From Promethearchaeota archaeon (GTDB lineage Archaea; Asgardarchaeota; Lokiarchaeia; Sigyniarchaeales; SOKP01): a DNA stretch of 11,467 bases. How positions within the stretch are numbered: position 1 is the stretch's first letter; every line of letters begins with the position of its first letter. The notes beneath the pieces were generated by a model. It ran no database searches. It was not told the DNA's origin and saw nothing but the letters and a program-made list of their open reading frames with translations. The position numbers were made by a program, and so were the translations under genes. The stretch is taken from positions 1-11,467 of the forward strand of contig JAHLWH010000056.1 of assembly GCA_019058015.1 (NCBI GenBank), written 5' to 3'. Shown here piece after piece: positions 355-11,467 of this stretch.

Positions 355-480
355 TTATCAAAATTATTAAAAATGTTAAGAAATGTTAGCAGTTTTTAAT
401 AAAAATTGTTCATGCGAAGTTTGGAACAAATCCCTTATTCGCACAGGCTGAAACCAGCAGCTTCTATCGGATAGATTTTG
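355..480 (-). ncRNA. Putative omegaRNA (reRNA) scaffold overlapping the tnpB 3' end
   Basis: TnpB omegaRNAs are known to be encoded at the element right end. Stems seen here: 438-445 with 411-418 (two G-U pairs valid only on the minus strand), 424-429 with 406-411, and 393-402 with 364-373. Limits approximate. Confidence 0.5.
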
Positions 481-1653
481 AATAAAATCATCTCCGACTA
501 CTTTTCTGAGGATATTTAATGCTCCATTTACGTCTGCATTGAGAAGGTAATTCGAGCCTCTAAATAATCCTCGTTTTATCCGTTTACCAACATAATTTTT
601 ATGCTTCTGAATCGGTTCTAAATCCAATGAGCTACATTTTGAAGTGTAAGACTCATTGACTTCATGAATTTGAATTCCTACAAGCTGAGTTTTATAAGTT
701 ATCATTTGTTTAAGCCTTTGAATGGGGATAGACACGAAATTCTGGTTATTTCGTTTGCCCATTCTGATATTCTGTTTTATATTTTCCAATTTACCTAAAC
801 AAATGTGTCCTATTTGGTTTTTTAAGCAATATCCTACAAGTAAATGAGCTGTATTATGTAAATAGTCAGTAATAACTGAATTTCGATTAATAGTAATATT
901 TTCAAGTCTTTTTGTCCACTTTAGGTTCTGTTTGTCTTTGATAGAATAGAGCCTTGCTTTACGTTTATTCCATTGCCGATTTATAGATTTTAAAATTCTA
1001 CCTGAAATGATAATTGGCTTTAAATTTCTGTTTTCTACTGTAGTTATTAAATTATTCAATCCAAAATCGATTGATAGATATCTCTTTGAATCCAACTTTG
1101 ATTTCTTTACGTCTTTTTTATATACTATTTCGATTTCATAGAAGTTCTTTCTTGGTAAGACCCTTATTTGTTGATAGTGTTCAAAATTCCTATTTTTATA
1201 GTGAGGGATAGATATTTCTATTGGAATCTTAAATTTAGAATATGTTTCTTTAAACAGTTTAGACATCATAAGAATGATTCTATTGTTTTTAATCTTGCTA
1301 TTCTGGTTGGTGAATATTAGAAGATTACTACAGGGTTTCTTATATTTAGGTGGTCTCGGTCTTCCATTGAACTTTTTTCGATTTTCTTTCCATTCTTTTA
1401 TCGCATTGAAGAAACTTTTCCAATTCTTATCTAAAGTTTTAAGAATCTGTTGAGAGGTTTGGGCTTTCAATAATTTATAATGAGTAGAATATTTTAAAAT
1501 GAAATTTAAATCTTCATATCGTAGCCAATTCTCTAGATTAAAAAAATCTTGCCTAACATACCAATTTGCTTGATTATAAAGTTTCTTAGAAATGGAGCAA
1601 AGCAAATCCAGATGCTCAGTCTTAGGGTTCCTGAATTTATACGCTAATTTCAT
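376..1653 (-). CDS. tnpB: RNA-guided endonuclease TnpB (IS607-associated, zinc-finger-less type)
   Basis: RuvC-I LSIDFGLNNL, VNESYTSKC, GKRIKRGLF, RuvC-III NADVNGALNIL, and N-terminal LYNQAN / SQQIL / WKSFF / PPKYK motifs. The track starts at GTG 1665; ATG 1653 (MKLAYKF) is the more likely start and overlaps the tnpA stop. Confidence 0.93.
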   Translation of the reverse strand: MKLAYKFRNPKTEHLDLLCSISKKLYNQANWYVRQDFFNLENWLRYEDLNFILKYSTHYKLLKAQTSQQILKTLDKNWKSFFNAIKEWKENRKKFNGRPRPPKYKKPCSNLLIFTNQNSKIKNNRIILMMSKLFKETYSKFKIPIEISIPHYKNRNFEHYQQIRVLPRKNFYEIEIVYKKDVKKSKLDSKRYLSIDFGLNNLITTVENRNLKPIIISGRILKSINRQWNKRKARLYSIKDKQNLKWTKRLENITINRNSVITDYLHNTAHLLVGYCLKNQIGHICLGKLENIKQNIRMGKRNNQNFVSIPIQRLKQMITYKTQLVGIQIHEVNESYTSKCSSLDLEPIQKHKNYVGKRIKRGLFRGSNYLLNADVNGALNILRKVVGDDFIQNLSDRSCWFQPVRIRDLFQTSHEQFLLKTANIS

Positions 1654-2239
1654 CTTTAAATTCACTTTTCTTTTTTATTATAAATTCTTTTCGTCTCCGT
1701 GAATACATTGACATCGCATAGCAATGCAATAATGATTTAATTTCCTGAAATATCTCCTGTTCCGTGGAAATGTATTCTAAATCATTGATAACGATTATCT
1801 TTGTTCCAAATTCATTAAATAATTTCTGAAATAGCTTAAACCCAATACGACTTAATCTGTCTTTATGAGAAATAATTACTAAATTAATCTTATCATTAAT
1901 TATTTCTTTAATCAAAAAGAGAAGATATTTTCTTTCTAATTTCATACCAGAAGCGATATCTTCATAGATTCCATTAATTACTATACCATTTTGAAAACAA
2001 TAACTCTTTAATGATTGAATTTGGGGTTCTAAATCTTTTTTTTGTTTTCTTGTTGAAACCCTTGCATACAATATATTCTTTCGTGGAATGTCTTTATTCA
2101 TAAAATCATATACAATTTTTTCATCATAATCATAACTCCCATTTGGAAACTTAATCACATTAATGATTCCTTGTTTTACATAATTTGTTAAGGTTGGTCG
2201 TGAAACTCTCAACAGATTTAAGACTTCACACGCTTTCAT
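1637..2239 (-). CDS. tnpA: IS607-family transposase TnpA (N-terminal MerR-like HTH + serine recombinase)
   Basis: N-terminal MKACEVLNLLRVSRPTLTNYVKQG HTH, catalytic YARVSTRKQKKDL, DIASG, KDRLSRIGF and C-terminal YSRRR. Confidence 0.94.
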   Translation of the reverse strand: MKACEVLNLLRVSRPTLTNYVKQGIINVIKFPNGSYDYDEKIVYDFMNKDIPRKNILYARVSTRKQKKDLEPQIQSLKSYCFQNGIVINGIYEDIASGMKLERKYLLFLIKEIINDKINLVIISHKDRLSRIGFKLFQKLFNEFGTKIIVINDLEYISTEQEIFQEIKSLLHCYAMSMYSRRRKEFIIKKKSEFKDEISV

Positions 2240-2576: not shown

Positions 2577-3620
2577 TTAAGTAGGGAATATGGGAATTGC
2601 TTTTAAACCCATATTTTCATCTAGATCGAACATAATATTCATGTTTTGCACGGCTTGTCCTGCGGCTCCTTTGATTAGGTTGTCAATTGCTCCAACAATT
2701 ATTATCCTGCCAGTTCTATTTTCAATTGTAAATCCAATATCACAATAATTTGAACCCTTTACAAATTTAGTCTCTGGAAATACTCCTTTTTTCGTTAGAC
2801 GAATAAAATATTCATAAAAATAATAGTTTTCATAAATCTCCTTTATCTCTTCATAGTCAAAATTATTTTTAAGTTTCCCATAACATGTCGTTAAAATTCC
2901 ACGATTCACAGGGATCAAATGAGGAAAAAAAGTAATAATAATATCAGTTCCACTCAATTCACTCAATTGTTGCTCTATTTCCGGTGTATGACGATGTGAG
3001 GTAATTTTATATGCTTTAATTGATTCATTACATTCTCCAAAAAGGAATTCTAGATTTAAAGTACGTCCTGCCCCTGTAATACCTGATTTTGCATCAATAA
3101 TAATGCTGTTTTCCTTTATAATACCCTCTGCCAATAGAGGTAATAAACATAATATAGTACATGTTGAATAACATCCTGGATTGGCAATTAGGGTTGATTT
3201 TTTAATACTTTCTCTTTTTAATTCACATAGACCATAAACTGCCTTATTCAAAAGATCTCTATTATGATGTTCAGTTTTATACCATTTTTTATAGACTTCT
3301 TTACTGTTTAACCGAAAATCTGCACTAAGATCAATTATTTTTACTTTTTCTAAAATACTTTCCGTTATAAGTATAGACGAAATTCCATGGGGGAGCGCCA
3401 AAAAGATTACATCAACTTCTTTCGCCATAGATTCAATAGTATTTCCAACACATTTAATTTCACAAATTTTTTTGAAATTCTCAAATATCGAATCATATTT
3501 ACATCTAATATGATTTTGTGATGCTAATAATTTTAATTCTACTTTTGGGTGTTGCAATAGTATTCTAACTAATTCTGACCCAACATATCCGGTTGCTCCC
3601 ATAATACCTACTCTAATCAT
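2577..3620 (-). CDS. argC: N-acetyl-gamma-glutamyl-phosphate reductase
   Basis: Rossmann GATGYVG, FLALPHG, IDLSADFR, catalytic ANPGCY, DAKSGITGAGR, HRHTPEI and DNLIKGAAGQAVQNMN. Confidence 0.96.
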   Translation of the reverse strand: MIRVGIMGATGYVGSELVRILLQHPKVELKLLASQNHIRCKYDSIFENFKKICEIKCVGNTIESMAKEVDVIFLALPHGISSILITESILEKVKIIDLSADFRLNSKEVYKKWYKTEHHNRDLLNKAVYGLCELKRESIKKSTLIANPGCYSTCTILCLLPLLAEGIIKENSIIIDAKSGITGAGRTLNLEFLFGECNESIKAYKITSHRHTPEIEQQLSELSGTDIIITFFPHLIPVNRGILTTCYGKLKNNFDYEEIKEIYENYYFYEYFIRLTKKGVFPETKFVKGSNYCDIGFTIENRTGRIIIVGAIDNLIKGAAGQAVQNMNIMFDLDENMGLKAIPIFPT

Positions 3621-5409: not shown

Positions 5410-5682
5410 TTGCCAAAAAAACGAAAAAGCGGGGGAAAATCAGCCTCCCACAAAGGACAGAGCACTACAGTGCAGTGTGCAAACTGTGGCAGATTTGTTC
5501 CTAGAAGTAAAGCGAAACAAGTTACAAAACGTGTGTCTTTAGTAGATGGTCGTATATATAAAGAGCTTAGAGATGCGGGTGCTATAATCCAACGTCCAAC
5601 GCAGAGAGTTTATTATTGTATTTCATGTGCAATTCATAAACATAAAATCTCACAGCGTGACAAATCAACTAGAAAAACTTAG
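5410..5682 (+). CDS. rps26e: Small-subunit ribosomal protein eS26 (S26e)
   Basis: MPKKR N-terminus, VQCANCGRFVPRSKA and YYCISCAIH zinc knuckles; TTG start. Confidence 0.95.
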   Translation: MPKKRKSGGKSASHKGQSTTVQCANCGRFVPRSKAKQVTKRVSLVDGRIYKELRDAGAIIQRPTQRVYYCISCAIHKHKISQRDKSTRKT

Positions 5683-5859: not shown

Positions 5860-7824
5860 TTAAATATTCATCTGTTTAAAAAAGATCGGGAGATTGTATA
5901 TTACATCAATATATTTTTTATTCTTAATTTCAATGATAGCGCGAATTAGATATTCCTGCTTTAATTCTGTATTTGGAGTGTAAATCCGAACTTTTGCATT
6001 TGTATTTAATTTCAATGAATAATTTTCGGCGACGCCAGAAAGTTCATAATCTCCAAAAATTAAAAAACCTAACAGTCCTAATTCAGTATGAAGTGCAACG
6101 AATAACGTTTTTTCATTAGCTAAAGGCTGTATTTTAATAACTTCGAAGTAATCTTTTAATTTTTTATTAAGATTTTGATATGCTACAACCCGTTTTCCTG
6201 TAAGGAATTGAAATTTAGTGTAATATAATTTATGAAAATCATGGTATTGTCTGATTTGTTCATTATATTTATCAACATTTTTCAATTTGTAGGCTTTTTG
6301 AAATAAAAGATCTACATTTATATCCTCCATGGTATACCCACTTAAAATCGTAGCAATATACGCCCTTTTTAATTTATCAAGAAGTGTAGGTATTTTATAT
6401 TCAAAATTTCCATCGATTGCCATTTCTAGAGATTCATTATAAAGGGAAGCAGAAATTTGAGAGTGCCCCAATGCTAAAAAATAATCTCCTAATTCACTAA
6501 ATACAATCATTGCTTCTTCTAAATATTTTTCTGTATCATAATTAGAGAGTTCTTCAATTATTGAGATTGCTTGCTCTTTATTCTCTTGAGTTCCCATGAA
6601 TAAAGCTAAAGCTTTTCCAATAGTACATTTCAAAATTAGTTTTCTTTCATTATAAACTTCAGCAAGCTGGCTTGTAAAATCATATTGTTTGATAGCTGAA
6701 GTGTAAAAACCATGAAATATTCTAATAAGCGCCTTAAGATAATTTATTGTTAAACCAGTTCTCCAATTATGGATAATTGTTGAAAATAAGGCAGTTCTAT
6801 CAAAAGCTTCCAATGCAGAATTAACTTTTCCGATTTTAATTAATAGAAACCCACGTAAAAACTCCATTTTTGATAATTCTGAGCATATTAATTGATTTAT
6901 AATATCATAATTTCTTCCAGAAGTCTTTCCATGGGCAAGTTGTAATAGAGAAGTTAAAAATGAACTACCTTTTTTTAGATTTTTAACAGAATCTTTAATA
7001 TTTTCATCGATTAGTGAGTTTTTTGAGGAAATTAGATAACTTCGAGCAATCCTCAAATTTTCTAAAAAATTTAAGATCCCTTCAATTTTTTTTTCCTCAC
7101 TTCTCGGTAAATCATGCCCTTGAATAAACTTCTCGCTAATTTCGCATTCTTCCTTTATTGAAGCATCCATAGGCGTTAGAGGAATTCCCTGATCTTCTGA
7201 AATTGAGTCTTTTGTTATAATGGAATTTTCTGTTACTGAAACCGCTCTCTCTATGAGCCAAGTGATTTTCTCCTCTGCGAGATATACTTTTGAGCGCAAT
7301 ATCAAATAGGATAACGTATAATTAAGGCTTTTCCGCCAAATATTTTTAAAATATATTTTTAGCGATGGGTTTGAAACTGTTCTTTGGATTTGCAATAAAA
7401 AACCCGATAGTGACAGAACATTTATTTTACTTTTATAAAGTAGATTAATCTCTCGCACTAACTTAAAATCATCGGTTACAATTGTAATTTTCGCCGAATT
7501 ATCAATTTCAGATAACATATCTGCTAATGCTATTAACGATAAATCCGGATCTTGAGCAGGAAATCTAATTTTACGTCTCTTTAAAGCGTCTTTTATTAGC
7601 TTTATATTTGCATCAGATATTTGTTTTACATGAATAAAACTCTGAAATTTCTCTCGAAAACTAGCATTTACTCCTTTTATTTCAAAAAATACCTTTTCAC
7701 TGATAAAAAATTCAAGACCAAGAAGTTTTCCTGCAGTTTCTAAATTTTCGAGTATTTTTTTAGCACGTATTTCATTCATGCAGATGAAGAAATTTGCATC
7801 GAAAATTGTGATTTGTCTAGTCAT
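5860..7824 (-). CDS. PIN-domain ribonuclease fused to a TPR-like helical repeat region and a beta-rich C-terminal domain
   Basis: PIN acidic tetrad in the expected contexts: IFD9ANF, VFFE48I, DPD94LSLIALA, IVTD118D119FKL. TPR-like helices such as FLRGFLLIKIGKVNSALEAFDRT, YLKALIRIFHGFYTSAIKQYD and FSELGDYFLALGHSQISASLYNESL. Confidence 0.75.
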   Translation of the reverse strand: MTRQITIFDANFFICMNEIRAKKILENLETAGKLLGLEFFISEKVFFEIKGVNASFREKFQSFIHVKQISDANIKLIKDALKRRKIRFPAQDPDLSLIALADMLSEIDNSAKITIVTDDFKLVREINLLYKSKINVLSLSGFLLQIQRTVSNPSLKIYFKNIWRKSLNYTLSYLILRSKVYLAEEKITWLIERAVSVTENSIITKDSISEDQGIPLTPMDASIKEECEISEKFIQGHDLPRSEEKKIEGILNFLENLRIARSYLISSKNSLIDENIKDSVKNLKKGSSFLTSLLQLAHGKTSGRNYDIINQLICSELSKMEFLRGFLLIKIGKVNSALEAFDRTALFSTIIHNWRTGLTINYLKALIRIFHGFYTSAIKQYDFTSQLAEVYNERKLILKCTIGKALALFMGTQENKEQAISIIEELSNYDTEKYLEEAMIVFSELGDYFLALGHSQISASLYNESLEMAIDGNFEYKIPTLLDKLKRAYIATILSGYTMEDINVDLLFQKAYKLKNVDKYNEQIRQYHDFHKLYYTKFQFLTGKRVVAYQNLNKKLKDYFEVIKIQPLANEKTLFVALHTELGLLGFLIFGDYELSGVAENYSLKLNTNAKVRIYTPNTELKQEYLIRAIIEIKNKKYIDVIYNLPIFFKQMNI

Positions 7825-7916: not shown

Positions 7917-10900
7917 TTATATTTTCGACAAAAAGGCATCTAAATTGTCTTTAGACCCCTTTTTTCTAGTTTTAGAATTTTTTAATCGATGCAATTTATA
8001 ATTATTTTGTTCGTTAAGCTTTTTCAATGTATCAAAACCTCTTAATCTAGTTAATTCAATAATTTCCTTAAATTTCTTCCGATTGTCATTACTTAAATTT
8101 AACAAATCGGCAAAAAGATCCCATTTAATAATTCGAATATTTTCGGGATATTTAATCCCTTTGTCTTTAGGGAGTTTTTTAACTCGACCAATCCAATGAT
8201 GATACCAATATATTCCGACAATAAATAACATAATTTTGGAATGTTGATATTTCTCAATTTTATCCATGATGGTGTTTTTTTTTAGTGAACTGGTATAATC
8301 AAAAAACACTACTTTAATGTGGTCTAATTTTTTAGGATCAATTTTTAACTCTTCAGCAATTCTATCTTTTAGAAGCTTTTGCAGATATTTTTTATCATTT
8401 TTAAATGCATTATCGCAACGTTTTTGATTACTAGGATAAATTTGGGGCTCTGAAAAAAGTATTGGAACATCCGGAGATTTTTTTCTTTTTTCATCTAAAT
8501 CTTGTGTGACTATTTTTTCAATTAATTTATGATTCACCTGCCCTATTATCTTTGATATATCCTCTTGGAATAATTTATTGAATTCTTCTTCTTCCAAGTT
8601 GTCTTGTAATATAACTCTGGCAGTACTCCATGCTACTCTCCATGTTTCTGCAATCTTAGTTATAGTGTCAAGATCTTTGGAGCGACCAGCTTTTATTATG
8701 CCTTCTCGTTGCTCATCGGATACCCAATCTGCAGGCTCTGGAAATTTCTTATGATATACTTTATCTCCCAAGTCATTTTGTATAATATCTATGGCTGTCC
8801 CAATTGCTACTCCAAATTCAGATGCAATCATACGAATAGAGTCAGGGTCTTCGGAGTGACCGGCTTTTATTATGCCTTTTCGTTGCTCATCGGATATTTC
8901 TCTATGAAATTTCGTATGATATTCTTTCTCTCCCAAGTCCTTAATTATTATCTTTCTAACAGTACCAACTGCTACTCCAAATTCATCTGCAATATTATCT
9001 AAAGAATCTGGATTTTTGGAGCGACCAGCTTTTATTATCCCCTCTCGTTGCTCATCGGATACCCAATCATCAGGACTTGGAAACCTCTTTTCATATTCTT
9101 TTTGTGTTAAAATTTTATGACAGATAGTTGTTAATGAACCTCTGCCTATTTTAAAATTCATTTCTTTTAATTTTCTATAAATTTTTTGCTTTGAAAACTT
9201 AGTATATTTGATGTAATGTTCAAGAAGATTATCTATATTTTTATTTTCATTGAATTCATCTATTCTTTTTACTAAATTATTTTTCTCTTCTTTAGTTAGC
9301 GCATCATTTTCTTCACTTTTAATAAATTTAATAAATTTCTTAGTAAAATGAGTACCCTTATAGACAATACCACCATCATATTTTTTTATTAATTCTTTCA
9401 ATTTCGGATCTTTTAAAATCTTAAATTCTTCTATAGCTTTATCAATAAGATCTTCCAAATCTTTTGATTTTGTATCTTTATTTAAATTCTTTGAGTCTAT
9501 TCCTGAATCTTTAATATCATTGTTGTTATGACTTTCTTCATCCCGCTCTGAAGTTGGTTCCGATTCTTTAGCATCTTCTTGGTCTTCTTTCTGTTCTATG
9601 AAAGTTGTGGAAAATGTGGGAGCTATAATTTTTTGGCCTCTCTTGATTCCGATTTGTTTCCATTTCTTATAATATTTTTTCTCTCCCAAGTAATTTTTTA
9701 TAATATCACTAACTTTACCACTTTCTACTTTCCACTTAGCTGCGATCTTATATACGGGAATAACTTTTTCAGAACGGGCGTCTTCTATTATACCTTTTCG
9801 TTGCTCATCGGATACCCGATCTTTAGGCATTAAAAACCTTTTTTCATATTCTTTCAGTGTTAAAATCTTATGTAATTTATATGTTAATGCAAGTTTGGTT
9901 ATTTTAAAATTCATTTCTTCTAATTTTCTACGAATTTTTTCCTTTGAAAAAAAAGTGTATTTGATGTAATGTTCAAGAAGATTATCTATATTTTTATTTT
10001 CATTGAATTCATCTATTCTTTTTACTAAATTATTTTTCTCTTTTATAGTCTGTCCATCATTTTCTTCACTTTTAATAAATTTAATAAATTTCTTAGTAAA
10101 ATGAGTACCCTTATAAGCGAGACCATCATATTTTTTAATTAATTCTTTCAATTTTGGATCTTTGAAAATCTTAAATTCTTTTATAGCTTTATCAATAAGA
10201 TCTTCCAAATCTTCTAATTCTTCTCCTTCTAATTTTACCTCTTCTTCTGTTTTTTTATTTAAATTCTCCGAATCTTTTTCTGAATCTTTAATATCATTGT
10301 TGTTATGACTTTCCTCATTTCGCTCTGAAGTTGGTTCCGATTCTTTATCATCTTCTTGATTATTTTCCTGAACTGTGGAGGTCGTGGAGGATGTGGTAGC
10401 TGTAATTTTTTTATTATCTTTTTTATTTTCCTTTCCTTTTAACGATAGTTCTTGTTCTGGTTCATCTTTTTGGATATCTTGTTCTTTATCCTCAACCTGA
10501 CCCCTAAATTCCCTCTTCAACCTTTCATTCAAATTCTTTCTTTGATCAATAAACCCCCCAAACTCTCTCCTCAACCTCTGCTTTAAATTGAGTGTTTGAT
10601 CAGTAAAACCCGTTCTTTTATAATCCATTTCCATTTGGTTTTCTTTCTCTTGTTCTGATGTTTGTTCCTCTTCTTTAGTATCTTTTTGATTTTCTTTCTG
10701 ATCTGTGGAAGTTGTGGAAGATGTGGTAGCCGTAATTTCTTTACTTTCTTCTCCACTTTCTTTTCCTATTAACGATAATTCTTGTTCTGATGTATCTTGA
10801 TTATTTTTATCTATACTTAAATCATAATTAATCTCATTTTCATTCCCCTCTTCATATAAGTTTTCTATTTGAGGTTCTCTAATATAGTCCTGTCCAAGAG

Positions 10901-11467
10901 TCTTGGTATGCACATTAGTGATATCTATCGTCATAGGTTCAATAACATTTGAAATTTCCAAAGAGTCATCTTCTAAATTATATTGAGTATTTGAGAGATC
11001 TACAAATTCATTTAAGAACATATCTTTAATATTCCAAGATTCATTATCTAACTCCATTAATTCCTCTTTTATTTCTTCTCTTGCTATGTCTTGAGTAATT
11101 TTACTATCTTGAAAATCGCTTGAGGATATATCTTTTATTTCCAATAATTCTCCATCTAATTCAGATAACTCAACTTCTAACAACTCTTGAATAATCGGAG
11201 CTTCTTGAAATTCGCTTGAGATTATATCATCTAATTCTGATAATTCATCTTCTAACATATCTTGAATAACTGGAGTTTCTTTCAATTCATATGAAGATAT
11301 ATCTTCCAATTCAGATAATTCTCCATCCACTTCTGATAACTCATCTTTTAATACGTCTTGAATAACTGGAACTTCTTGAAATTCACTTGAACATATGTCA
11401 TCCATTTCCGGTAAGGCTGCGTCCAATCCAGATAACGCATCTCTTGCTATCTCTTGAACATCTGAAT
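7917..11467 (-). CDS. Large repeat protein (5'-truncated): acidic repeats, duplicated module, six HTH repeats, C-terminal PD-(D/E)XK-like nuclease
   Basis: The frame stays open upstream of the track's TTG at 11426 (SDVQEIARDALSG), and that stretch matches the acidic repeat, so the true start is outside the window. HTH pattern e.g. SLDNIADEFGVAVGTVRKII. Nuclease motifs GQVNHKLIE, SEPQI, KRCDNA and VFFDYTS. Confidence 0.8.
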   Translation of the reverse strand, partial: SDVQEIARDALSGLDAALPEMDDICSSEFQEVPVIQDVLKDELSEVDGELSELEDISSYELKETPVIQDMLEDELSELDDIISSEFQEAPIIQELLEVELSELDGELLEIKDISSSDFQDSKITQDIAREEIKEELMELDNESWNIKDMFLNEFVDLSNTQYNLEDDSLEISNVIEPMTIDITNVHTKTLGQDYIREPQIENLYEEGNENEINYDLSIDKNNQDTSEQELSLIGKESGEESKEITATTSSTTSTDQKENQKDTKEEEQTSEQEKENQMEMDYKRTGFTDQTLNLKQRLRREFGGFIDQRKNLNERLKREFRGQVEDKEQDIQKDEPEQELSLKGKENKKDNKKITATTSSTTSTVQENNQEDDKESEPTSERNEESHNNNDIKDSEKDSENLNKKTEEEVKLEGEELEDLEDLIDKAIKEFKIFKDPKLKELIKKYDGLAYKGTHFTKKFIKFIKSEENDGQTIKEKNNLVKRIDEFNENKNIDNLLEHYIKYTFFSKEKIRRKLEEMNFKITKLALTYKLHKILTLKEYEKRFLMPKDRVSDEQRKGIIEDARSEKVIPVYKIAAKWKVESGKVSDIIKNYLGEKKYYKKWKQIGIKRGQKIIAPTFSTTFIEQKEDQEDAKESEPTSERDEESHNNNDIKDSGIDSKNLNKDTKSKDLEDLIDKAIEEFKILKDPKLKELIKKYDGGIVYKGTHFTKKFIKFIKSEENDALTKEEKNNLVKRIDEFNENKNIDNLLEHYIKYTKFSKQKIYRKLKEMNFKIGRGSLTTICHKILTQKEYEKRFPSPDDWVSDEQREGIIKAGRSKNPDSLDNIADEFGVAVGTVRKIIIKDLGEKEYHTKFHREISDEQRKGIIKAGHSEDPDSIRMIASEFGVAIGTAIDIIQNDLGDKVYHKKFPEPADWVSDEQREGIIKAGRSKDLDTITKIAETWRVAWSTARVILQDNLEEEEFNKLFQEDISKIIGQVNHKLIEKIVTQDLDEKRKKSPDVPILFSEPQIYPSNQKRCDNAFKNDKKYLQKLLKDRIAEELKIDPKKLDHIKVVFFDYTSSLKKNTIMDKIEKYQHSKIMLFIVGIYWYHHWIGRVKKLPKDKGIKYPENIRIIKWDLFADLLNLSNDNRKKFKEIIELTRLRGFDTLKKLNEQNNYKLHRLKNSKTRKKGSKDNLDAFLSKI
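8568..9812 (-). repeat. Four ~51-aa SDEQR-type HTH repeats (9660-9812, 8907-9059, 8742-8894, 8568-8720)
   Basis: The exact 16-mer CGTTGCTCATCGGATA starts at 8707, 8881, 9046 and 9799. The tandem units are spaced 174 and 165 bp. Confidence 0.9.
8907..10411 (-). repeat. Intragenic tandem duplication of ~730-750 bp (9660-10411 and 8907-9634)
   Basis: Offset 777 bp at the N-terminal part and 753 bp after in-frame indels. Identical blocks of 85 bp (9958-10042 = 9205-9289) and 61 bp (10055-10115 = 9302-9362). Confidence 0.95.
10340..10788 (-). repeat. Duplicated Ser/Thr linker (EQELSL..ITATTSSTTST, 330-bp offset) flanking a 2 x 54-bp repeat
   Basis: AACGATA at 10441 and 10771. Inner units 10548-10601 (DQTLNLKQRLRREFGGFI) and 10494-10547 (DQRKNLNERLKREFRGQV). 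Confidence 0.85.
11000..11467 (-). repeat. Acidic 32-aa (96-bp) tandem repeats, at least 5 units, possibly continuing beyond the window
   Basis: TCTTG anchors at 11089, 11185, 11260, 11356 and 11452 (spacing 96, 75, 96, 96). Consensus roughly IQDxLxDELSELDGELxExxDISSSEFQExPx. Confidence 0.88.

Follow-up and report, generated by a model that had tools for sequence, protein, structure and literature searches.

Diversification of a putative recognition helix between recently duplicated modules of a predicted giant helix-turn-helix array protein from Promethearchaeota

Promethearchaeota are the closest prokaryotic relatives of eukaryotes. The stretch of DNA analysed here (the window; 11,467 nt, GC content ~29%) is contig JAHLWH010000056.1 of the Promethearchaeota archaeon assembly GCA_019058015.1, and it contains a gene that raises a specific question: why do two modules of a single protein, closely similar over most of their length, differ so strongly in nine residues that are predicted to form the recognition helix of a helix-turn-helix (HTH) unit? 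The gene is the minus-strand open reading frame (ORF) 7917–11465, the product of which (P0001) appears from its sequence to be a giant multi-HTH protein (>1182 amino acids) belonging to a family restricted to Promethearchaeota. From the N-terminus, it is composed of acidic repeats, Thr/Ser-rich linkers, two duplicated units (unit 1, aa 348–603; unit 2, aa 607–853), two additional repeats and a C-terminal domain. Each unit consists of a linker, an acidic stretch, a module of ~130 residues (here termed class A) and a 56-residue repeat starting with SDEQR; the combination of linker and acidic stretch occurs three times (aa 244, 354 and 613), and the SDEQR HTH repeat four times (S1–S4). The features of the gene, with synonymous divergence abbreviated as dS, are as follows.

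7917..11465, minus strand: whole ORF, 1182 aa plus stop codon, from the ORF list and its translation; the 5′ end is cut by the window edge.
10746..11465, minus strand: acidic D/E/S-rich repeat region, aa 1–240, from the translation; tandem repeats with periods of 75 and 96 nt.
9798..10352, minus strand: recently shared block, copy 1 side, aa 372–556; dS 0.15–0.30, against 0.65–0.76 in the flanks.
9831..10217, minus strand: class A module copy 1, aa 417–545; hmmsearch domain match, independent E-value 6e-78.
9873..9899, minus strand: copy 1 helix 3, TKLALTYKL, aa 523–531; from the translation, with the HTH assignment predicted from the model and from sequence comparison.
9657..9824, minus strand: SDEQR HTH repeat S1, aa 548–603, following copy 1; divergent 'IPVYKIA' type, dS against S2 0.65.
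9045..9575, minus strand: recently shared block, copy 2 side, aa 631–807; holds the perfect 85-nt and 61-nt blocks.
9078..9467, minus strand: class A module copy 2, aa 667–796; hmmsearch domain match and AlphaFold2 (AF2) model mb181cf4671c7.
9120..9146, minus strand: copy 2 predicted helix 3, GRGSLTTIC, aa 774–782; model residues 108–116 (helix H109–119) and hhalign.
8904..9071, minus strand: SDEQR HTH repeat S2, aa 799–854; repeat comparison, weak Pfam HTH matches.
8739..8906, minus strand: SDEQR HTH repeat S3, aa 854–909; repeat comparison, 165-nt period.
8565..8732, minus strand: SDEQR HTH repeat S4, aa 912–967; repeat comparison.
7920..8564, minus strand: conserved C-terminal domain, aa 968–1182; homologue alignment.

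Both helix segments lie in frame within this single ORF. The reverse complement of 9873–9899 reads ACC AAA CTT GCA TTA ACA TAT AAA TTA (TKLALTYKL) and that of 9120–9146 reads GGC AGA GGT TCA TTA ACA ACT ATC TGT (GRGSLTTIC), so that 12 of 27 nucleotides and seven of nine residues differ; the Leu-Thr pair is retained, and in five of the seven altered codons the third base is unchanged. When the two copies are aligned with an offset of 753 nt, perfect blocks of 85 nt (9205–9289) and 61 nt (9302–9362) are seen. All of these values had been given in a first-pass annotation of the window and were borne out on re-reading the sequence. The same annotation described the duplication as near-identical, which is accurate for a block of ~555 nt; the rest of the 753-nt duplication, comprising the linker and the SDEQR repeat, is diverged. 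Over the whole duplicated unit (246 aligned codons) 133 of 738 nucleotides differ, and within the near-identical block (176 aligned codons, aa 372–556 versus aa 631–807) the count is 60 of 528. By region, dS and the nonsynonymous divergence (dN) are 0.76 and 0.41 in the linker, 0.24 and 0.12 in the acidic stretch, 0.147 and 0.064 in the class A core, 0.30 and 0.135 in the tail (aa 532–556 in copy 1 numbering) and 0.65 and 0.43 in the remainder of the SDEQR repeat. Because dS is so much lower in the ~555-nt block than in its flanks, the block is best explained as recently shared between two units with old flanks on both sides, and the duplication is, on this comparison, a mosaic. The divergence between S1 and S2 equals that of any two SDEQR repeats, and the repeat that follows class A matches the helix in its divergence, nine-codon windows of it reaching 15 differences.

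Within the near-identical block, the helix is the nine-codon window of maximal difference. A window with 12 differences arises in the block by chance with P = 0.016 when codons are shuffled (100,000 shuffles) and P = 0.0008 when nucleotides are shuffled (20,000 shuffles), and a binomial comparison of the helix with the 9.6% background of the block gives 2.6e-6. In a tree of 14 class A modules, copies 1 and 2 are sisters (92% ultrafast bootstrap, UFBoot), with branch lengths of 0.21 and 0.05, respectively. Their core identity of 88% is the highest of the 91 module pairs, and only two of their nine helix residues are identical; pairs of modules from different proteins with 81–85% core identity retain six to nine of the nine. 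Taken over the module pairs as a whole, identity in the helix rises with identity in the core (Mantel r = 0.39, p = 0.004).

The 14 modules come from a family that is, as far as sequence searches reach, small and confined to Asgard archaea. This follows from the few homologues found and from the origin of both genomic loci: an exhaustive HMMER search of 1.84e9 representatives returned ten proteins, six of them at E <= 1e-30, word-indexed searches (5.8e9 proteins) added a few more, and a profile scan of genome contigs identified two loci, both in Promethearchaeota or Promethearchaeia metagenome-assembled genomes (MAGs) and one per genome. These loci, L001 and L002, encode P0005 and P0007, respectively. 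The first-pass annotation would not have stood had the variation been evenly spread among homologues; instead, it peaks exactly at helix 3. The nine-residue windows of highest entropy are alignment columns 107–115 and 108–116 (1.71 and 1.69 bits; the mean over the domain is 0.73), and maximum-likelihood site rates are 1.75 in the helix and 0.91 elsewhere (Mann–Whitney p = 5.6e-4). Leu112 and the residues flanking the helix are conserved across the family.

The segment had been called the predicted class A recognition helix, and its identification as helix 3 of an HTH agrees with both an AF2 model and a profile match to the SDEQR repeats. The model of copy 2, built from a 16-sequence alignment, has a mean predicted local distance difference test (pLDDT) score of 87 and a predicted template-modelling (pTM) score of 0.72. 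It ends in three helices (residues 77–88, 93–102 and 109–119; pLDDT 83–94), and the variable segment, residues 108–116, lies at the start of the last of these. The C-terminal third of class A thus adopts, in the model, a three-helix layout with the HTH in the last two helices; the turn between helices 2 and 3 comprises six residues, versus three to four in the classical motif. Profile comparison (hhalign) of the class A C-terminus with 47 SDEQR repeats gave a probability of 96.3% and an E-value of 1.8e-9 over 26 columns covering helix 3 and the KEY..RFP tail, with the variable segment falling on SDEQR helix 3. The variable segment is therefore placed, by model and alignment together, in helix 3 of an HTH-like three-helix unit. 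By analogy with homologous HTHs, this helix would contact DNA and its variable residues would face it.

The HTH nature of the SDEQR repeats is itself most evident in homologues, the repeats of which exceed Pfam cut-offs for HTH_23 (P0005, 37.7 bits versus 24.6), HTH_SB (P0015, 53.2 versus 43), Sigma70_r4 (P0009, 42.2) and many HTH families (P0012). The repeats of P0013 and P0011, two of the six proteins scanned, gave no Pfam HTH match at E <= 0.01, and those of P0001 fall below the cut-offs (HTH_23, 18.0 bits versus 24.6; HTH_38, 16.7 versus 27). The best PDB sequence match of the SDEQR profile is SpoIIID (2l0k, E = 0.098), aligning helix 2, the turn and helix 3. Entropy among the SDEQR repeats also peaks at the start of helix 3 (1.78 versus 1.10 bits).

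Other searches with P0001 and its parts were less informative. Pfam scans of the whole protein and its pieces gave nothing above cut-off, and when the class A and SDEQR profiles and the C-terminal domain were compared with PDB sequences, no match had an E-value under 0.09. Class A produced a single Pfam match, below cut-off: in four of 16 members it aligns with the N-terminal portion of the DDE_Tnp_ISAZ013 profile (best E = 0.014). The ESM Atlas yielded no usable class A match, and a single-sequence AF2 model of aa 667–967 (pLDDT 67.5) had no PDB match at E <= 0.001. Foldseek searches with the class A model gave only local, non-significant matches of HTH size, for example 6xgx_A (47 columns, root-mean-square deviation 2.4, E = 8.2).

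The substitutions in the helix are predominantly nonsynonymous. Codon comparisons were made as pairwise counts over the nine helix codons of four class A DNA sequences (copy 1, copy 2, L001 and L002). Between copies 1 and 2, the helix shows 11.5 nonsynonymous and 0.5 synonymous differences (proportions pN 0.57 and pS 0.07), and in all six pairs the helix pN (0.44–0.61) exceeds the helix pS (0.07–0.36). In the rest of the module, dN is 0.07–0.19 and dS 0.22–0.43 over the six pairs. Outside the helix, copies 1 and 2 differ at none of 11 four-fold sites and four of 86 silent-type third positions, a silent divergence in the block of ~5%, against ten of 18 first and second positions within the helix (P = 1.5e-9). 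The pair L001–L002 provides an independent test, since the helix window was not chosen on that pair: 16 of 71 third positions outside the helix differ, against 11 of 18 first and second positions within it (P = 4.8e-4). The same comparison gives P = 0.079 for the pair with the weakest signal among the six. A binomial test with omega = 1 and the pS of the module gives 3.5e-4 for copy 1 versus copy 2 and 0.006 for L001–L002, and a Fisher test of nonsynonymous to synonymous counts (N:S), helix versus rest, pooled over the two independent pairs gives p = 0.005–0.025. Given the low silent divergence throughout the family, the retained third bases are to be expected; on these sequences, they do not separate change in situ from import.

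In our judgement, the most probable reading of these observations is that helix 3 specificity is under diversifying (positive) selection in a modular HTH array, the evolution of which proceeds through module duplication. The protein would be a lineage-specific Promethearchaeota array of acidic repeats, Thr/Ser linkers, one to three class A modules, one to four SDEQR repeats and a C-terminal domain, with the last third of each ~130-aa class A module forming an HTH. The ~555-nt class A segment would have been duplicated or homogenized very recently (silent sites ~5% different), and nearly all of the nine residues that start helix 3 would have changed since then, chiefly on the fast-evolving copy 1, whether through point substitutions or through the acquisition of a short patch. 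Selection would act on the ligand specificity of helix 3, presumably its DNA sequence specificity, and the two modules of one protein would thereby acquire different targets, with modules of the array also being gained and lost. Of the strong diversifying selection on DNA specificity that had been suggested from the letters alone, the selective part is in line with the nonsynonymous excess in six of six pairs, and the part concerning DNA remains an extrapolation from HTH homology.

Several points weigh against this interpretation. The helix window was picked post hoc on the copy 1–copy 2 pair, for which the codon-shuffle P is only 0.016 and the Fisher N:S test, taken alone, gives p = 0.05–0.15. 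There are just four class A DNA sequences, their six pairs are not independent and the L002 sequence comes from an ORF of just 202 aa, possibly a remnant; NG86 counting in a genome of 29% GC may, in addition, misjudge synonymous sites. As for the fold, the full class A profile compared with just eight SDEQR repeats reaches a probability of only 35.8% (E = 3.8e-4), neither the window copies nor 16 class A members match a Pfam family at cut-off, and the class A model has no Foldseek match at E <= 0.001 in the PDB or BFVD. Recently duplicated SDEQR repeats of P0005, P0013 and P0015 retain an identical helix 3, so that divergence of the helix after duplication is not automatic. Finally, residues shared exclusively by copy 1 and the homologue P0016 fit an import of the helix better than change in situ.

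Because of these shared residues, import remains the main rival, and one that we consider possible, if doubtful. According to this explanation, helix 3 of copy 1 was acquired as a short patch from another family member by cassette-like exchange, with recombination through the conserved flanks; the cores of copies 1 and 2 would be alike through recent duplication or gene conversion, and the donor would have had a 'TKL.L...L' helix. Copy 1 and P0016 exclusively share three residues among the 14 modules (T108, L110 and L116), all in the helix and none elsewhere, a cluster that ranks top among all module pairs. The copy 1 helix has its best match in P0016 (five of nine residues identical) at a core identity of only 66%, and by eye the helices of the family fall into three types: S.YT(L/I)..IS, K(K/R)..L.K(M/K)C and TKL.L...L. 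The mosaic nature of the duplicated unit points the same way, since S1 is of the 'IPVYKIA' type also carried by the repeat of P0017 and has a dS of 0.65 against S2, and the two of nine helix third positions that differ are compatible with the 12–23% silent divergence between family members. On the other hand, column 105 (EMNF), which is specific to copies 1 and 2, lies three residues from the helix, and HKILT follows the helix immediately; as a consequence of these closely flanking residues, an imported patch could measure ~30 nt at most. Moreover, only five of nine residues match P0016, and convergence on a similar target would look alike. The window holds no donor copy, and the two reference genomes have one locus each. 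The exchange among paralogues put forward by the first-pass annotation is hinted at by the P0016 residues and lacks a source copy in the window.

Relaxed constraint offers a different account of the same variability, in which the segment is an unconstrained surface stretch that drifts neutrally. In homologues, too, the segment varies more than any other, as would be expected of such a region, and the single-pair Fisher test is non-significant, as stated above. However, neutral drift predicts that nonsynonymous change in the helix should be about equal to silent divergence, and first and second positions differ by 39–61% against 5–23% at silent sites; the binomial tests at omega = 1 reject neutrality for both copy 1–copy 2 and L001–L002. 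Leu112 and the flanks are conserved, and the segment is modelled as a helix (block pLDDT 83–91). We regard drift as improbable.

It is likewise improbable that the tandem duplication is an assembly artefact, whether formed by a chimeric join of alleles from two strains or by misassembly of a repeat. A possible sign of one is the homologous gene call P0003 (650 aa, on a contig of 10,223 nt), which starts just after the copy 1 helix with a Met replacing Lys533 of the window protein (9869 region), and which could mark a break in a contig or gene call; its start could equally reflect the end of a contig, a sequence variant or an artefact of gene calling. Nevertheless, P0003, compared by eye, matches window aa 534–1182, a stretch that crosses the junction and includes copy 2. 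No exact repeat exceeds 85 nt, a length below that of typical reads and final k-mers, and the junction between the units is unique and diverged (linker dS 0.76; the unit 2 linker has IIAPTFSTTF versus ITATTSSTTS). The reading frame is intact throughout P0001, and P0004 and P0017 likewise contain several class A modules.

An origin in the programmed hypermutation of a diversity-generating retroelement (DGR), for which one copy would serve as template and the other would be the variable repeat, can be dismissed: two near-identical repeats differing in a short patch resemble such a system, as does a hypervariable patch within conserved flanks, but DGR variable proteins differ from P0001 in their fold, their associated reverse transcriptase and their adenine-specific pattern, and the reverse-transcriptase check proposed in the first-pass annotation found no such domain in nine window ORFs or 17 L001/L002 ORFs; the mismatches are also not adenine-specific (six of 12 helix mismatches on A in copy 1 and one of 12 in copy 2, 22 and 18 of 60 in the block, on a coding strand that is 48% A, with differences spread throughout the unit). 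Inverted repeats were also considered as a possible cause of template-switch mutation and rejected, a weak palindrome being present near copy 2 and none near copy 1.

The evolution of the array by gain and loss of modules, which accompanies diversifying selection in the preferred reading, is supported within the family. Members contain one to three class A-type modules (two or three in P0004 and P0017), and SDEQR repeats number one to four in the close family and up to eight in distant relatives. Two adjacent SDEQR repeats of P0005 (aa 904–959 and 960–1015; L001 10562–10897, plus strand) are identical in protein sequence, and P0013 and P0015 also have near-identical repeat pairs with an identical helix 3. 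As some adjacent repeats are identical or nearly so, the gain of SDEQR units appears from these sequences to be ongoing or recent. Copy numbers and repeat identities thus agree with an array that acquires and loses modules.

Comparison with known systems shows both likenesses and differences. Its likeness to homeodomain-like and transposase-type HTHs lies in the alignment of class A helix 3 and tail with the SDEQR repeats, in the modelled three-helix layout and in the homologues' SDEQR repeats that exceed cut-offs for such Pfam families (HTH_23, HTH_38, HTH_SB, HTH_Tnp_ISL3, Sigma70_r4 and CENP-B_N). It differs from them in that class A is ~130 aa long, with an extra N-terminal helical part and a β-hairpin, and in that five or six HTH units are combined in one protein of >1180 aa with an acidic N-terminus and the C-terminal domain described below. 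Tandem ~50-aa HTH units are found in Pipsqueak-type proteins of Drosophila, and OdsH-like duplicated homeobox genes show acceleration of the DNA-binding domain after duplication; to our knowledge, these eukaryotic proteins have no detectable sequence relation to the HTH-array family.

The first-pass annotation had likened the locus to the Cys2His2 (C2H2) zinc-finger arrays of PRDM9 and KRAB proteins, a comparison that is useful as an analogy of evolutionary mode. Both have tandem small modules in changing number with near-identical frameworks, and in both the variability concentrates at residues expected to read DNA, with nonsynonymous exceeding synonymous change; for PRDM9, positive selection at DNA-recognition positions is reported (PMC3890296). 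Family membership does not follow, since the fold is that of an HTH and the translation of P0001 has no zinc-finger Pfam match and no Cys2His2 pattern. The organism is an archaeon without meiosis, there are no KRAB or SET domains and the array is far shorter. The broader generalization that Promethearchaeota HTH arrays evolve like KRAB and PRDM9 arrays, with modules that recombination adds, removes and homogenizes, a helix that is positively selected or cassette-shuffled, perhaps an arms race with mobile DNA or viruses, and a C-terminal domain that acts on DNA, is by analogy conceivable and in our view unlikely.

If the preferred reading of diversifying selection is correct, the locus would provide a rare prokaryotic, Asgard-archaeal example of a DNA-reading array with diversifying recognition residues and frameworks that are kept alike, a mode of evolution best known from animal zinc-finger genes. 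The two copies of class A would form a natural pair of modules, with 88% core identity and differences almost only in helix 3, that is suited to the study of HTH specificity. The ~130-aa class A module and the C-terminal domain are newly defined here, with no relative in Pfam, the PDB or BFVD, and literature searches found no description of the HTH-array protein family.

The ~215-aa C-terminal domain is conserved in all full-length relatives. It is shared by P0005, P0009, P0011, P0013–P0017 and P0019 and is also present in P0025, a minimal relative of 303 aa that appears to consist of one HTH and this domain; it occurs as a separate gene call in P0024 (211 aa). In P0001 (aa 968–1182) it matches neither a Pfam family nor a PDB sequence, and the ESM Atlas gave weak PD-(D/E)XK-type nuclease leads (Flu_PA, PDDEXK_3 and PDDEXK_11) with scores of 0.82–0.86, below the level of evidence. 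At the other end of the protein, the N-termini of P0005, P0015 and P0016 reach ~135–360 aa beyond the cut start of P0001. That of P0005 is acidic and non-hydrophobic, and was read as having no signal peptide, for which reason the HTH-array protein is probably intracellular. Further repeats in the gene lie at 10500–10611 and 11153–11442 (minus strand), with a 54-nt unit (REFGGFIDQRKNL-type) and 75- and 96-nt acidic units.

Other members of the family show local peculiarities. In L002, from the ABR01 MAG, positions 9902–10510 (plus strand) encode a 202-aa ORF with a class A module, divergent at its N-terminal end, and one SDEQR repeat, followed by AT-rich sequence with no long ORF; this member may be a fragmented or decaying copy. 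P0016 contains an extra insert at aa ~690–820, upstream of its class A module, with a Cys-rich motif (C..H....C..C-like) that is possibly a zinc ribbon and is not found in the window protein.

The genomic surroundings differ among the window, L001 and L002, and conserved synteny was rejected, the neighbours in L001 and L002 being unrelated housekeeping genes. Directly downstream of the HTH-array gene, a 654-aa ORF at 5860–7824 (minus strand; P0002) has no Pfam match and no counterpart beside P0005 in L001; the ORF downstream of P0005 was considered as a relative and rejected, as it encodes an unrelated NFACT protein. Pfam also identifies a CDP-alcohol phosphatidyltransferase, an RNA methyltransferase and an IS607-type resolvase and TnpB pair in the window, together with two genes that, along with the Promethearchaeota homologues, indicate an Asgard archaeal chromosome and for which coordinates are as follows.

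5410–5682, plus strand: ribosomal protein S26e.
2577–3620, minus strand: ArgC-type semialdehyde dehydrogenase.

The IS607-type pair occupies 376–2239 (minus strand), where the serine resolvase (1637–2239; Resolvase, weak HTH_17) overlaps its TnpB partner at 376–1665, which matches OrfB_IS605 and Cas12f1-like TNB.

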